From Acidobacteriota bacterium (GTDB taxonomy: Bacteria; Acidobacteriota; Vicinamibacteria; Vicinamibacterales; 2-12-FULL-66-21), in the NCBI GenBank assembly GCA_020200195.1, contig JAIVJE010000292.1, forward strand, positions 9,567 to 44,545: DNA of 34,979 bases, in the 5' to 3' direction. Shown one piece after another: positions 1,056-13,893 of this stretch. The notes below the pieces were generated by a model. The model searched no databases, was not told the DNA's origin, and worked only from the letters and a program-made list of their open reading frames with translations. Each line of letters starts with the position of its first letter. Position 1 is the stretch's first letter. A program made the position numbers and the translations under genes.

Positions 1056-2293
1056 CAGGCGAACACCTCGCGCACCCGCCCGAGTGCGCGCACCAGTGCG
1101 TCCACATCATCGCGCGTGTTGTACATCGCGAGCGATGCGCGCGCGGTGGCCGGCACGCCGAACCGGTCCATGACCGGCTGGGCGCAGTGATGGCCCGTCC
1201 GTATCGCCACACCCTCCCGATCCACGATGGTGCCGATGTCGTGCGGATGCACGCCGTCCATGACGAACGAGAGGATGCTTGCCTTGTGCGCCGCTGTGCC
1301 GATCATCCGGATGCCCGGGATCGCGGTCAGCGCTTCGGTGCCGTACGCCAGCAGGTCCTGCTCGTGCCGCGCCGCGTTCTCGAGCCCGACCGAGGTGATG
1401 TAATCGAGCGCCGCGCCGAGTCCGATCGCACCAGCGATGTCCGGTGTGCCCGCCTCGAACTTATAGGGCAACACGTTCCAGGTCGACTTCTCGAACGTGA
1501 CGGACGCGATCATATCGCCGCCGCCGAGGAACGGCGGGAGGTCCGTCAGCACCGAGGCCTTCCCGTAAAGCACGCCGATGCCGGTCGGCCCGTACAGCTT
1601 GTGGCCGGTGGCGGCGTAGAAATCACAGTCGAGCGCCTGCACGTCGACAGGCATATGATATGCGGCTTGCGAACCGTCGAGTAGCACTGGAATCCCGTGT
1701 GCGTGCGCGATCCGGACGATCTCCGCAGCCGGGGTAATCGTGCCCAGCGCGTTCGACATGTGGGTGATCGCGACGAGCTTGGTGCGCGGTCCGAGCAGCG
1801 CTTCGAACGCGTCGAGCATCAGCTCGCCGCGGTCATCAATCGGCGCCACACGCAACCGGGCGCCCTGCCGCTCGCAGAGCAGCTGCCACGGCACGATGTT
1901 CGAGTGGTGTTCCATCGCGGAGATCACTACCTCATCGTCTTTTTGAACATGCTGCCGGCCGTACGCATGCGCCACGAGGTTGATGCTCTCGGTGGCGTTA
2001 CGGGTGAATACGATTTCGCGGGTCTCGCGCGCGTTGAAGAATACGCGGACTTTCACGCGGGCGCCCTCGTACGCTTCCGTCGCCACCTCGCTCAGCTCGT
2101 GCACCCCGCGGTGGACGTTGGCGTTGATTTCCGTGTAGTACCGGGTGATGGAGTCGATGACGACCTGGGGTTTCTGCGTGGTCGCCGCGTTATCAAGATA
2201 GACCAGCGGGCGGCCGCGCGCCTGGCGACGCAGCAACGGGAAGTCAGCGCGGACCTGCGCGACGTCGAATCCCGCCGCTACGACGGAGGTCAT
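1055..2293 (-). CDS. sufS: Cysteine desulfurase SufS
   Basis: YLDNAATTQKP, GHKLYGPTG (PLP lysine), RTGHHCA (group II catalytic Cys). Confidence 0.97.
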   Translation of the reverse strand: MTSVVAAGFDVAQVRADFPLLRRQARGRPLVYLDNAATTQKPQVVIDSITRYYTEINANVHRGVHELSEVATEAYEGARVKVRVFFNARETREIVFTRNATESINLVAHAYGRQHVQKDDEVVISAMEHHSNIVPWQLLCERQGARLRVAPIDDRGELMLDAFEALLGPRTKLVAITHMSNALGTITPAAEIVRIAHAHGIPVLLDGSQAAYHMPVDVQALDCDFYAATGHKLYGPTGIGVLYGKASVLTDLPPFLGGGDMIASVTFEKSTWNVLPYKFEAGTPDIAGAIGLGAALDYITSVGLENAARHEQDLLAYGTEALTAIPGIRMIGTAAHKASILSFVMDGVHPHDIGTIVDREGVAIRTGHHCAQPVMDRFGVPATARASLAMYNTRDDVDALVRALGRVREVFA

Positions 2294-10244: not shown

Positions 10245-11405
10245 ATGAAGCTCGAGACGTTCGCAATGGAACGGCTGCAGTCGACCTGGGAAAACCGGGT
10301 CGCCTGGAACCTGGCGGAAAGCGGCGTTCATCCATTCCGTCTGGAGGAGCTGGCCGACAGCGCCGAGTCGCGCGCGGCCGTGCTCGCGCAGGAGCTCGGC
10401 TACACGCAGACCAACGGCACGCAGGAGTTGCGTGCAGCGGTGGCCCTCATGTATCCCGGCACAACATCAGACCACGTCGAGATCACCAACGGCGGATCGG
10501 AAGCGAACTGCATCGTGCTCTGGCATCTGATCGAGCCGGAGGACGAAGTCGTCATGATGGCGCCGAATTACATGCAGGTGCGCGGCATCTCGCGTGCGCT
10601 GGGCGCGAGAGTCCAACCCTGGCCGCTCGTCGCTGACGAGGCTGCGCGCCGCTGGCGGCCGGATCTCGACCTCCTTCCGTCGCTCGTCACGGCCCGGACA
10701 AAGGCGATCCTGATTTGCAATCCCAACAACCCAACGGGCGCGCGGCTCACTGAATCGGAACTGACCGAGATCTGCCGCGTCGCGTCGCAGGCCGGTGCAT
10801 GGATCGTGTCCGACGAGATCTATCGCGGCGCGGAGCTTGACGGCATCGAAACCCCCACTGCGTGGGGCCGGTACGAGCGGGTGCTCATCACGAGCGGCCT
10901 GTCGAAAGCCTACGCGCTGCCCGGACTGCGTGTCGGCTGGGTTGTGGGGCCGCCGGGCGTCGTCGAGGCTTTGTGGGGCGTGCACGACTACACGACCATC
11001 GCGCCGGGGGCACTCAGCGATCGCCTCGCGCGTATTGCGCTCGCGCCCGCGCGTCGCGCGCAGATCCTCGCGCGAACACAGGGCATCGTGCGCTCGAATT
11101 ATCCAATCGTCAGACGGTGGGTCGAGAAGCGTGCGCCTCTTTTGTCCGTGATCGCGCCCGAAGCCGGGGCCATCGCGTTCGTGAGGTACCAGTACCCCCT
11201 CAACTCGACGAAGCTCATCGAGCGCCTGCGCGAGCAGCAGAGCGTGCTGGTCGTTCCAGGCGATCACTTCGAGATGGACGGCTATCTGCGCATCGGGTTC
11301 GGGGGCGAACCGTCGCACGTGAGCGGCGCGCTCGATCGTGTTGGCGAGATGCTGGACACACTCGCACCCGGCGCGGCGGCACGAATCGCGGCGGATGCGC
11401 GTTGA
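10245..11405 (+). CDS. PLP-dependent aminotransferase class I/II
   Basis: NPNNPTG, SDEIY and SGLSKAYALPGLRVGW motifs; likely start MKLETF at 10245. Confidence 0.93.
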   Translation: MKLETFAMERLQSTWENRVAWNLAESGVHPFRLEELADSAESRAAVLAQELGYTQTNGTQELRAAVALMYPGTTSDHVEITNGGSEANCIVLWHLIEPEDEVVMMAPNYMQVRGISRALGARVQPWPLVADEAARRWRPDLDLLPSLVTARTKAILICNPNNPTGARLTESELTEICRVASQAGAWIVSDEIYRGAELDGIETPTAWGRYERVLITSGLSKAYALPGLRVGWVVGPPGVVEALWGVHDYTTIAPGALSDRLARIALAPARRAQILARTQGIVRSNYPIVRRWVEKRAPLLSVIAPEAGAIAFVRYQYPLNSTKLIERLREQQSVLVVPGDHFEMDGYLRIGFGGEPSHVSGALDRVGEMLDTLAPGAAARIAADAR

Positions 11406-12483
11406 TCTCGCGCTCATAGGGTTCGGTAATGTCGGGCGGCGGTTCGCCCGGCTCCTCAATGAGCTCCGCCCGCGTGTACTCACTGACTGCGATCTCGAAA
11501 CCCGGGTCGTGGCGATCGCAACCCGGACGCACGGTGCCGCATTTGACGTCGGCGGCATTGATGTGGGCGACGCACTCGTCCGAGTCGAAGGCGGACGGAG
11601 ACTCGCGAGCAGACTGGAGACAGCCGGACAACCGATCGCCGCGTGCGACGTCATCCGAAGGATGCGGCAGAGCGATGCCGCCCTTCGCGTCATGATCGAG
11701 ACGACCACTCTCGACGTCGGGGCCGGACGGCCGGCGATCGACCATGTGACGACCGCCCTGGACTCCGGCTGCCACGTCGTTACGGCCAACAAGGGACCAG
11801 CGGCGTTTGCCTATCGAGCCTTGCGGGATCGCGCGCGGACCGCCGGTCTGTCTTTTCTGTTCGAGGGCGCCGTGATGGACGGCGTCCCGATCTTCAACTT
11901 CGTACGCGAAACGCTCCCAGCGGTGAACATTCTCGGTTTCCGGGGGGTGGTGAACAGCACGACCAACCACATCCTGACTGCGCTGGAGGACGGCGACGAG
12001 TTCGGGCAGGCGCTCGCGCGGATGCAGGCGGATGGCATCGCTGAAGCCGACGCCTCTCTCGACGTGGACGGATGGGATGCTGCCGCGAAGGCCGCGGCGC
12101 TGGCCAACGTGCTCATGGACGCAGGGATCACGCCGCACGCGGTGGACCGGGCGGGGGTCGGCCCGGAGAGTGCAGAACGGGCGCGCGCAGCCAAAGCACG
12201 GAACGAGCGATTGCGGCTCGTCGCCCAGGCCGAGCGGGACACGTCAGGATCCGTCAGCGCCAGCGTTCAGCTCGTCGAGCTACCGGCGCGGGACCTGCTG
12301 GCGTCGCTGCGCGGCACCGCCAACGCGCTCGTGTTCCGGACGGATGTCCTTGGAGAAATCGCGGTGTGTCAGTTGGAAGGCACGCTGACGCAGACCGCGT
12401 ATGCGTTGCTGAGCGATCTGATCACGGTTCGCCGGCGGCATCCACAAGCGCCCGACGCAGCGCCGGTTCGTCGAAACCCTTGA
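11395..12483 (+). CDS. hom: Homoserine dehydrogenase (no ACT domain)
   Basis: GFGNVG, VVTANKGP, FEGAVMDGVP, NSTTN and DVDGWDAAAK motifs; overlaps the upstream stop. Confidence 0.88.
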   Translation: MRVDLALIGFGNVGRRFARLLNELRPRVLTDCDLETRVVAIATRTHGAAFDVGGIDVGDALVRVEGGRRLASRLETAGQPIAACDVIRRMRQSDAALRVMIETTTLDVGAGRPAIDHVTTALDSGCHVVTANKGPAAFAYRALRDRARTAGLSFLFEGAVMDGVPIFNFVRETLPAVNILGFRGVVNSTTNHILTALEDGDEFGQALARMQADGIAEADASLDVDGWDAAAKAAALANVLMDAGITPHAVDRAGVGPESAERARAAKARNERLRLVAQAERDTSGSVSASVQLVELPARDLLASLRGTANALVFRTDVLGEIAVCQLEGTLTQTAYALLSDLITVRRRHPQAPDAAPVRRNP

Positions 12484-12670
12484 TCGCGCGGCCGCCGATG
12501 ACGGTGACTGGTATCGTGCGGAAGCCTAGCGCCAGCAGATCGGTGTACGCCGCATGATCTTCCTCGACGTTGCGTGCCGTGAAGGGATGTCCGTCGCGTG
12601 AAAGTAACTCTTTCACCAGCTCGCAGGCTCGTCAATTCGAGCCGGAAAAGACCACGATCCCGGTAGCCAT
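12422..12670 (-). CDS. Glutaredoxin/NrdH-like redoxin with in-frame UGA (UxxC); probable selenoprotein, 82 aa
   Basis: ATG 12670 gives MATGIVVFSGSN-[TGA 12634-12632]-RACELVKELLSRDGHPFTARNV...GFRTIPVTVIGGRAIKGFD. The UGA sits at the first Cys position of the CxxC motif; cis-Pro (TIP) and GFD motifs are intact. Confidence 0.85.
12598..12616 (-). promoter_or_regulatory. Putative bacterial SECIS hairpin
   Basis: Perfect 7-bp stem GUGAAAG-AGUUA-CUUUCAC starting 15 nt after the UGA, with G in the second loop position. Confidence 0.7.
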
Positions 12671-12681
12671 CCGCTGATTGT

Positions 12682-13893
12682 ATGTCCGCACCGGATTCCG
12701 ATACGACTGCTCCGCTGTCAGGCCTGACGGTCATCGATCTGACGCGCGTGCTGTCGGGTCCCTACTGCACCATGTTGCTGGCAGATATGGGCGCCCGTGT
12801 CATCAAGGTCGAGCAGGCCGGTCGCGGCGATGACACGCGTGCCTGGGGTCCCCCGTTTCAGGGTTTCGAAACGGCGTATTTCCTGAGCATCAACCGCAAC
12901 AAAGAAAGCATCACCCTCGATTTGAAACGCCCGGAAGGCCGCCGGATCCTCGACGGCTTGCTCGATCGCGCCGACGTGTTGGTCGAGAACTTCCGCCCCG
13001 CGACGATGGAGCGACTCGAGTTGGGATACGAAACAGTCCACGCAAGATGGCCGGGCGTCATCTACTGCTCCATCTCCGGATTCGGGCAGACCGGCCCGCG
13101 GCGCGACGAACCTGGATATGACGCCGTCGTCCAGGCAGAGGGCGGATTGATGAGCATCACGGGTGATCCCGACGGGCCGCCGTTCAGGCTCGGCGTGGCA
13201 ATCTCCGACATCGTCGCCGGGATGTTTGCGGCACAGGGCATCCTCCTGGCGGTACTCGCGCGGGGAAAGACAGGCTTGGGACAACGTGTGGACATCGGGA
13301 TGCTCGATTCGACGGTGGCCCTGCTGACGTACCAGGCTGCGATTCATTTCGCTACCGGCATTCCGCCGGTCCGTCTGGGGAACAGGCATCCGACCATCGT
13401 TCCATACGAGACGTTTCAGGCCGCGGACGGCGACATGGTCCTGGCGGTCGGAAACGACGAACAATGGCGCCGGTTCTGTGACGCGGCAGGTCTGGAGGAA
13501 ATTGCGGAGGACCAACGGTTCTCCAACAATGCCGGCAGGGTCGCCCAATACGACCTGCTCCGATCTCTGCTGGCGCCGCGGCTGCGGCAGCGAACGCGCG
13601 CGGAGTGGCGCGCCAGGTTCAACGCCGCCGGCGTACCTTGCGGTGCGGTCCGCGACATCGCGGAGGTGCTCGCGGATCCGCAAGTGCGGGCACGATCCAT
13701 GATCGAGGCGGTCGAGCACGCCGCGCTCGGATCCATTCAGGTATTGGGCCTGCCAGTGAAGTTGTCCGACACCCCAGGACGAGTACGCAGCGCCCCACCG
13801 ACCCTCGGCCAGCACACCGACGAGATTCTGCGGAGGGATCTCGGCCTGTCCGAAAGGGACATCGCCGCGCTGCGCACGTCGGGAATCGTGTAA
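12682..13893 (+). CDS. CaiB/BaiF (family III) CoA transferase
   Basis: DLTRVLSGPYCTMLLADMGARVIKVE, NRNKESITLDLK, ENFRP and PTLGQHT motifs. Confidence 0.95.
   Translation: MSAPDSDTTAPLSGLTVIDLTRVLSGPYCTMLLADMGARVIKVEQAGRGDDTRAWGPPFQGFETAYFLSINRNKESITLDLKRPEGRRILDGLLDRADVLVENFRPATMERLELGYETVHARWPGVIYCSISGFGQTGPRRDEPGYDAVVQAEGGLMSITGDPDGPPFRLGVAISDIVAGMFAAQGILLAVLARGKTGLGQRVDIGMLDSTVALLTYQAAIHFATGIPPVRLGNRHPTIVPYETFQAADGDMVLAVGNDEQWRRFCDAAGLEEIAEDQRFSNNAGRVAQYDLLRSLLAPRLRQRTRAEWRARFNAAGVPCGAVRDIAEVLADPQVRARSMIEAVEHAALGSIQVLGLPVKLSDTPGRVRSAPPTLGQHTDEILRRDLGLSERDIAALRTSGIV

Follow-up and report, generated by a model that had tools for sequence, protein, structure and literature searches.

Glutaredoxins in which selenocysteine (Sec, U) replaces the first cysteine of the CxxC redox site form an established selenoprotein family. 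An entry 'Glutaredoxin (Grx), PF00462, UxxC' stands among the experimentally verified prokaryotic selenoproteins, for a limited number of species, in two reviews (PMC13188914, PMC9312934), and a 2006 survey names Geobacter, Alkaliphilus and Moorella as bearers of Grx selenoproteins and gives only three selenoprotein families for Acidobacteria (PMC1794560). We describe here a gene of this kind, called grx below, in a 34,979-nucleotide (nt) stretch of DNA from an Acidobacteriota bacterium of the order Vicinamibacterales (contig JAIVJE010000292.1, positions 9,567 to 44,545); this whole stretch is referred to as the window. The frame 12670..12422 on the reverse strand very probably encodes an 82-residue thiol-disulfide oxidoreductase of glutaredoxin/NrdH fold, with Sec at residue 13 (U13) as predicted attacking residue and Cys16 as the resolving one. 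Judged by its sequence, it is a new, Vicinamibacterales-type member of the known Sec-glutaredoxin family. Since both the family and its decoding mechanism are already established, the advance is incremental, and the term 'hidden selenoprotein', applied in an earlier sequence-only reading of this DNA, cannot be kept as a general label for the protein family. A literature search, which left out supplements (these may list Acidobacteriota Grx selenoproteins), returned no paper tying glutaredoxins of Vicinamibacterales or Acidobacteriota to selenocysteine.

The best structural match of the family profile is PDB 7c10 (E 4.7e-23, colinear over 75 residues). This is glutaredoxin-1 (cGrx1) of Clostridium oremlandii, a native selenoprotein whose catalytic Sec was changed to Cys13 for crystallisation and whose resolving residue is Cys16; cGrx1 is described as recycled by glutathione and is proposed to reduce a selenoprotein MsrA (PMC7642778). 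cGrx1 of strain OhILAs (PDB 7c10, 7c12, 7c13) and the window protein have in common Sec/Cys at residue 13, the resolving Cys at residue 16 and a stretch of the type V-K-E-F-L-S after the active site. The TGA-bearing Natronincola locus L064, close to cGrx1, carries the same hairpin sequence as the genes discussed below, and its product is 37% identical to the window protein (28/75, no gaps), with U aligned to U. On the other hand, the active site is U-P-H-C in cGrx1 and U-R-A-C in the window, and the window protein shares only about 37% of its residues with the Bacillota clade. Since the MsrA match of the window genome has no in-frame stop, a Sec-containing MsrA like the partner in C. oremlandii is not supported. 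Whereas cGrx1 is glutathione-recycled, gshB (canonical glutathione synthetase, TIGR01380) was found in none of 31 relatives, 25 of them at least 90% complete, other glutathione routes not having been searched.

NrdH-redoxins (TIGR02194; PDB 1h75, 1r7h, 4fiw) share with the window protein a small glutaredoxin fold and a similar length (PDB matches at E 1e-10 to 1e-12), and the likeness would extend to a glutathione-independent, thioredoxin-reductase-dependent recycling if the reductant suggested below is right. NrdH proteins are recognised by the signature motifs CVQC and WSGFRP; the window protein has instead URAC, with Sec, and KGFDEP. Its 43.6 bits are below the TIGR02194 cut-off of 85.75 and the gene lies outside an nrd operon, between a homoserine-dehydrogenase-like (hom-like) gene and a CoA-transferase gene, so that an NrdH-redoxin identity was rejected. 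The YruB family (TIGR02196) gave the best NCBIfam match (residues 5-75) but was also discarded, at 46.6 bits against a cut-off of 88.55; it is moreover defined on CxxC proteins. The UXX-star selenoproteins (NF041212, NF041114, NF041211, NF047338) have a glutaredoxin-like fold and Sec, and match weakly (16-32 bits), all below their cut-offs of 66-100 bits (NF041212, 32.2 versus 66). Their Sec stands, by the family name, two residues before the C-terminal stop, in contrast to residue 13 of 82 here. A quick tree puts the window protein in a separate Acidobacteriota/Vicinamibacterales clade. This tree started from 147 rows (120 loci of the scan described below and 27 relatives), 124 of them within 70-100 amino acids (aa) and 116 distinct, truncated loci and many long Chloroflexota forms being dropped; as it is weakly supported (10/113 branches starred), we rely on it for nothing more than the assignment of the window to the Acidobacteriota clade.

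The reading frame and its relatives

The full selenoprotein gene (12422..12670, reverse strand) is delimited by translation of TGA as U, by its Pfam match and by the same architecture in 27 aligned homologues. It opens with ATG 12670 and closes with TGA 12424-12422, that is 82 codons and a stop. With the internal TGA read as U, the product is MATGIVVFSGSN-U-RAC-ELVKELLS..., where the Sec codon UGA, codon 13 (12632..12634, reverse strand), aligns with the leading Cys of CxxC and stands in the local context SGSN-U-R-A-C; the resolving Cys16 is encoded by TGC at 12623..12625 on the same strand and is identified by its invariance in homologues. The fold was assigned from Pfam and PDB sequence matches, Pfam Glutaredoxin PF00462 covering residues 5-63 with E 5.6e-11 and 42.9 bits, above the curated cut-off of 22.9. 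Under translation table 11, the sole open reading frame (ORF) in this frame is a 64-aa one (12422..12616, reverse strand) starting at GTG 12616, 3′ of both U13 and C16; it lacks strand β1 and the CxxC active site and is a truncated artefact. The sequence-only reading had remarked on the missing active site of this ORF and on the complete 82-aa protein, with U-R-A-C at the CxxC position, obtained by reading through TGA 12634-12632, and on both points the ORF list and the translation agree with it.

We searched in six frames 61 genomes, namely the window's own and 60 relatives of the same family or order. Matches were present in 29 genomes, and 28 of the 32 matches listed contain exactly one in-frame TGA; 27 of these 28 were extracted and aligned, the 28th having no locus. 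All 27 (from 26 of the 61 genomes) share the TGA column ahead of x-x-C, T37, G38 and A39 being invariant in the DNA alignment, and the column is that of Cys13 in PDB 7c10 and, in CxxC forms like P0098 (CRAC), of the leading Cys. Whether homologues carry TGA or Cys at codon 13 was the check proposed along with the sequence-only reading; the answer is TGA throughout the alignment, with CGA in one further homologue (L042, below). Residues -8 to -1 and +1 to +60 around the UGA are conserved, with synonymous variation outside the hairpin. The codons ahead of the TGA vary synonymously (ATC/ATT, GTC/GTG, TAC/TAT, GGC/GGA/GGT) while residues I, V, Y, S and G are kept, and C16 is invariant in 26/26 proteins, encoded by TGC in 24 and TGT in 3 of 27 sequences. 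The region preceding the TGA thus evolves as translated sequence, not as a leader. With L042 added to the TGA-bearing loci, 28 were extracted, and all of them but L040 have a start candidate 10-13 codons before the TGA.

The four stop-less matches comprise three weak ones, Cys-containing domains within large proteins, and L042 (G024:C57, about 1408-1680, reverse strand). The latter has CGA (Arg) at the Sec position, and its C-terminus diverges after ...VPVTVVG, probably from a frameshift; its hairpin is intact, its genome G024 carries selA and selB, and its product is in the protein database as the 91-aa P0118. L042 is probably a recently decayed copy. A second, more distant Sec paralogue (about 37-39% identity, ...STM-U-QSC...) occurs at L046 (G015:C601) and at G044:C10:3752-3970, and L046 groups with a Syntrophobacteraceae sequence in the quick tree.

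The sequencing runs listed for this DNA are four metagenomes with small shares, no RNA run being among them, and their contigs correspond to relatives of 88-99% likeness. X2 (12515-12900), X4 (12263-12646) and X3 (12591-12634) reach or cross the Sec codon, and no change at 12632-12634 appears among the differences listed, at depths below 5; these contigs are no more than compatible with the Sec reading.

The hairpin downstream of the UGA

The candidate selenocysteine insertion sequence (SECIS) hairpin occupies 12598..12616 on the reverse strand, with the 5′ arm GTGAAAG (12616-12610), the loop AGTTA (12609-12605) and the 3′ arm CTTTCAC (12604-12598). It starts 15 nt 3′ of the UGA, the gap from UGA to loop being 22 nt, and encodes V19-K-E-L-L-S24 of helix α1. 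The perfect hairpin of 7 base pairs (bp), GUGAAAG-AGUUA-CUUUCAC, was thus located exactly where the sequence-only reading had put it, and its remark that the hairpin is built of AT-rich codons unusual for this genome was borne out: the window has a GC content of 0.648, and its four long ORFs use TTA for 0/188 Leu, CTT for 12/188 Leu, TCA for 11/114 Ser and AAA for 6/22 Lys. As given in a figure legend, the bacterial SECIS (bSECIS) model comprises a loop of 3-9 nt, a stem of 4-16 bp, a G in loop position 1-2, a spacing of 16-37 nt and an energy of -7.5 kcal/mol or lower (PMC13188914, Fig. 2 legend). The window hairpin is within all these constraints (5-nt loop AGUUA, 7-bp stem, 22-nt spacing, -7.6 kcal/mol). 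It also resembles the bacterial consensus (bSECISearch model; E. coli fdh prototype) in its place within the ORF just 3′ of the UGA, its small apical loop with G then U, its spacing and an upper stem of 7-8 bp; unlike the consensus, the window stem is very short and AU-rich, in a 65% GC genome. No Rfam family matches the hairpin, the single hit being a chance miRNA (E 6.2). Taken alone, the 23-nt hairpin has a folding energy reached by 0/200 shuffles (z = -3.63), whereas folding of 66 nt around the site gives no significant result (z = +0.60). On a single sequence, the hairpin is only modestly beyond chance, so that other genomes have to carry the case.

In that comparison RNAalifold, given no hint, folded the 27-sequence DNA alignment into an 8-bp helix with a GUU loop. 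In this helix 98.6% of the cells are paired, against 37-73% in slid controls. Two pairs show compensatory changes, in three cells (L046 U-A to C-G, L037 A-U to C-G, L043 A-U to G-C), and the covariation score was reached by 0/500 shuffles. Codons of the hairpin are frozen (GTG 26/26, GAG 25/25, TTT 22/25, CTT 27/27, TCA 26/27), in contrast with the same genes outside it (TTT 8/70, CTT 13/154, TCA 7/101). The only synonymous site that varies freely is the lysine codon, AAA in 15 and AAG in 12, which keeps an A-U or a G-U pair. These observations support the interpretation of the hairpin as a SECIS element constrained as both RNA and protein. Conservation of the hairpin in homologues, a further check named by the sequence-only reading, was therefore found in the form of near invariance of the nucleotides together with compensatory changes. 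In the window copy, a change of TTT to TTA opens the closing pair and leaves 7 bp and a 5-nt loop; four relatives have hairpins of -8.7 to -10.6 kcal/mol.

Outside these relatives, we scanned one genome per species of a GTDB set with the pattern TG[A/C/T]-N6-TGY-N6-GTGAARGAGTTHCTTTCAC, which retrieved at least 120 loci. Among the 120 listed, 119 have TGA and one TGT, at GC contents from 0.31 to 0.75. By record title they belong to Acidobacteriota (49), Chloroflexota (33), Bacillota (25), 'delta'/Thermodesulfobacteriota/Myxococcota (4), Planctomycetota (2), Armatimonadota (1) and NPL-UPA2 (1), two being unlabelled; Promethearchaeota, Bifidobacteriaceae and Betaproteobacteria are represented once each, possibly by mis-binning. 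At E ≤ 0.001, a HMMER profile search found 10,973 hits among 1.84 billion representatives, the best 150 of which comprise 124 CxxC forms, 7 sequences starting at VKEFLS and 19 others, of which the eight examined were either truncated after the TGA or a CGA form. Among these 124 Cys forms only one has CxxC-xx-VKEFLS and the rest vary, for example VKQYLS in the CRAC protein P0098. Since Cys forms vary there, the VKEFLS stretch is frozen only where the UGA must be recoded.

A wider idea, which we regard as doubtful and put forward tentatively, is that the 19-nt GUGAA(A/G)GAGUU(U/C)CUUUCAC would be a single near-invariant SECIS of Sec-glutaredoxins across at least seven phylum-level labels and 31-75% GC. 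VKEFLS would then be largely a by-product of RNA constraint, and the roughly 37-nt UxxC-plus-hairpin would act as a portable Sec-insertion module for divergent SelB. If this is true, the UxxC-plus-hairpin unit could serve as a minimal in-frame selenocysteine tag. The literature search, again supplements apart, gave no description of the VKEFLS hairpin motif or of its invariance.

Several individual loci deserve mention. The sole Cys form among the 120 loci listed, L055 (Pelotomaculum metagenome-assembled genome, 5843-5879, forward strand), has TGT in T-C-P-H-C and retains the hairpin sequence in full, which points to a recent replacement of Sec by Cys, the SECIS persisting as a fossil. L068 (2448-2484, reverse strand), on a 5-kb contig labelled Promethearchaeota archaeon, encodes a bacterial-type Sec-glutaredoxin (U-M-F-C) with the in-ORF hairpin and groups with Chloroflexota in the quick tree, by mis-binning or transfer. 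L104 (Bifidobacteriaceae label) and L126 (Betaproteobacteria label) are of the Vicinamibacterales type, URPC and UQSC, nested in the Acidobacteriota clade; these bins are probably mislabelled. A Bacillota subgroup (L083, L087, L120, L137, L144, L163, L166, L169) of about 76-78 aa, with ...FGS-x-x-U-x-x-C-x-P-VKEFLS... and an insertion containing YRD, has the identical hairpin and makes a well-supported clade (99% SH-aLRT). The top profile hits, among them P0096, P0097 and P0101, also include Cys-glutaredoxins with two domains in tandem (164-176 aa) and fusions of a secreted or lipoprotein-like kind (270-400 aa).

Selenocysteine machinery and competing explanations

The assembly of the window genome (G000) has 4.0 Mb in 584 contigs and is 81.6% complete. 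It contains selA (544 bits), selD (349 bits), whose frame holds a single TGA, and a tRNA-Sec with the anticodon tca. The selD (L006, G000:C55:21843-22769, reverse strand) is itself a selenoprotein gene, ...SCAGUASK..., with an 8-bp stem and a G-first GCU triloop 16 nt on. Among the 61 genomes, selA is above cut-off in 55 and selB in 49; the genomes devoid of both (G041, G042, G058, G060) are also devoid of a grx homologue.

Some observations weigh against decoding of this gene as a selenoprotein gene. Queries with TIGR00475, the SelB winged-helix model PF09107 and a relative's SelB failed to reveal selB in the 81.6%-complete assembly, where the best match to the selB model has 96 bits, against secondary matches of about 150-190 bits in nearly all relatives. 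In the window, 13 of 918 TGA triplets (both strands) precede a perfect hairpin of at least 7 bp in bSECIS geometry. The window hairpin is a weaker variant, met in 1 of the 120 scan loci listed, and its energy barely passes the -7.5 kcal/mol limit. The covariation comes from three cells only, in related sequences. Finally, the scan selects for the hairpin, and its count of TGA gives an association with TGA, not the share of Sec-glutaredoxins devoid of hairpin. The most important of these points is selB. Given the incompleteness of the assembly and the presence of selB in 49/61 genomes, we read its absence as a probable assembly gap, and the low best score suggests that other translation-GTPase genes, for example tuf-like ones, may be unassembled too. 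The sequence-only reading had proposed that the organism decodes Sec and, as a check, a search for selA, selB, selC and selD. The former is supported by the TGA of relatives, the conserved hairpin and the selA, selD and tRNA-Sec genes, which the search recovered; selB is the part that failed to appear. None of the outcomes that this reading had named as refuting it (a complete genome devoid of selABCD, reads with TGC or TGT at the codon, or Cys in all relatives and no conserved hairpin) was encountered.

Could the gene be a relic, belonging to a true selenoprotein family but no longer productively decoded in an organism that lost selB? Three different queries failed to find selB, the window hairpin bears the rare weakening TTA change, and L042, in which CGA replaces the Sec codon and the C-terminus is damaged, shows that decay occurs. 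Yet selA, tRNA-Sec and a selD that itself requires Sec are intact, the ORF is undamaged before and after the TGA, and both the incompleteness of the assembly and the frequency of selB among the 61 genomes tell against a real loss, so that we consider a relic very unlikely. Still harder to sustain is a genuine stop at this TGA, with a 64-aa product from GTG 12616 and the upstream frame and hairpin as a leader or regulatory element. Table-11 calling does give this ORF, all 94 of 94 database homologues are called that way, and a hairpin spanning the GTG start could in principle modulate initiation. Such a product would, however, be deprived of strand β1 and of the entire redox site, the 12 codons before the TGA and the xxC after it evolve as in-frame coding sequence, Cys homologues align their Cys with the TGA, and the hairpin goes with TGA in 119 of the 120 loci listed even though the scan left the codon free (TGA/TGC/TGT).

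Non-Sec read-through, by a near-cognate tRNA inserting Trp or Cys or under a reassigned code, is scarcely credible. Downstream structures can stimulate non-Sec read-through in some systems, but the UGA here occupies the catalytic Cys/Sec position of a family with a proven Sec member, and the complete set of Sec-specific tRNA and synthesis genes is present. Code reassignment in particular is excluded because TGA terminates the window gene and 22/28 homologous ORFs. Sec insertion at codon 13 thus remains the preferred reading.

Genomic setting, proposed chemistry and annotation

grx is antisense to both of its neighbours. The hom-like gene (11338..12483, forward strand; Pfam Homoserine_dh 1.1e-40) is convergent with it, with a 62-nt overlap at the hom-like 3′ end, and the CoA-transferase family III gene (12682..13893, forward strand; Pfam CoA_transf_3 1.8e-140) is divergent. 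Each neighbour has a homologue next to grx in 24 of 27 other loci. In L035 (G049) and L043 (G038), unlike the remaining loci, grx and the hom-like gene share a strand, which points to an in-place inversion of this gene of roughly 250 bp. Only 11 nt separate the grx start codon from that of the CoA-transferase gene, and each promoter would therefore lie inside the coding sequence of the other gene. The TACAAT box of the sequence-only reading, a -10-like hexamer 6 nt before the grx ATG, is indeed present (12677..12682, reverse strand). Similar TANNNT hexamers occur 6-7 nt before the start in 10/28 loci, and no Shine-Dalgarno-like motif was seen in the window before the start codon of grx or of the CoA-transferase gene; TACAAT may thus be suggested as promoter of a leaderless mRNA. 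This role is less secure than the motif itself: a promoter and terminator scan gave 0 sites and no sigma-70-type promoter, and because TACAAT overlaps the CoA-transferase ATG (12682-12684, forward strand), a promoter need not be the only reason for its conservation.

According to the established bacterial mechanism, the ribosome would meet the UGA at codon 13 while the hairpin, which has a 7-bp stem and AGUUA loop in the window (8 bp and GUU in most relatives), would recruit SelB-GTP-Sec-tRNA(Sec), so that Sec would be inserted with no termination. The same 19 nt would encode V-K-E-(F/L)-L-S of helix α1, which would impose a dual RNA and protein constraint. By homology to cGrx1, the selenolate of Sec13 would attack a substrate disulfide or sulfenate, the mixed intermediate would be resolved by Cys16 to give a selenenylsulfide, and the protein would be regenerated by an external reductant. 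As to this reductant, the lack of gshB in all 31 relatives weakly favours a thioredoxin reductase-type or non-glutathione thiol system over glutathione.

How such genes are stored in databases is of practical importance. A word-indexed protein search returned 94 homologues, all 94 being calls of 60-78 aa that cover at most 77% of the query and begin after the TGA; one of them is the NCBI record 'glutaredoxin family protein [Vicinamibacterales bacterium]'. The prediction that standard annotation would truncate the gene is thus confirmed well outside the window. Glutaredoxins of Vicinamibacterales-type soil Acidobacteriota are kept in public protein sets as stubs devoid of active site, and functional and selenoproteome surveys miss these Sec-glutaredoxins because they are stored as truncated calls. 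The TGA-N6-TGY-N6-hairpin signature offers a simple and specific rescue, TGA being found in 119 of the 120 hits listed.

For the organisms, our analysis adds a redox selenoprotein to a soil lineage that is abundant, for the most part uncultured, and commonly equipped with selA (55 of 61 genomes) and selB (49 of 61). For the family, it provides a clean example of one sequence constrained as RNA and as protein, and the cross-phylum invariance of this dual-coding SECIS is the loose end that we find most interesting.

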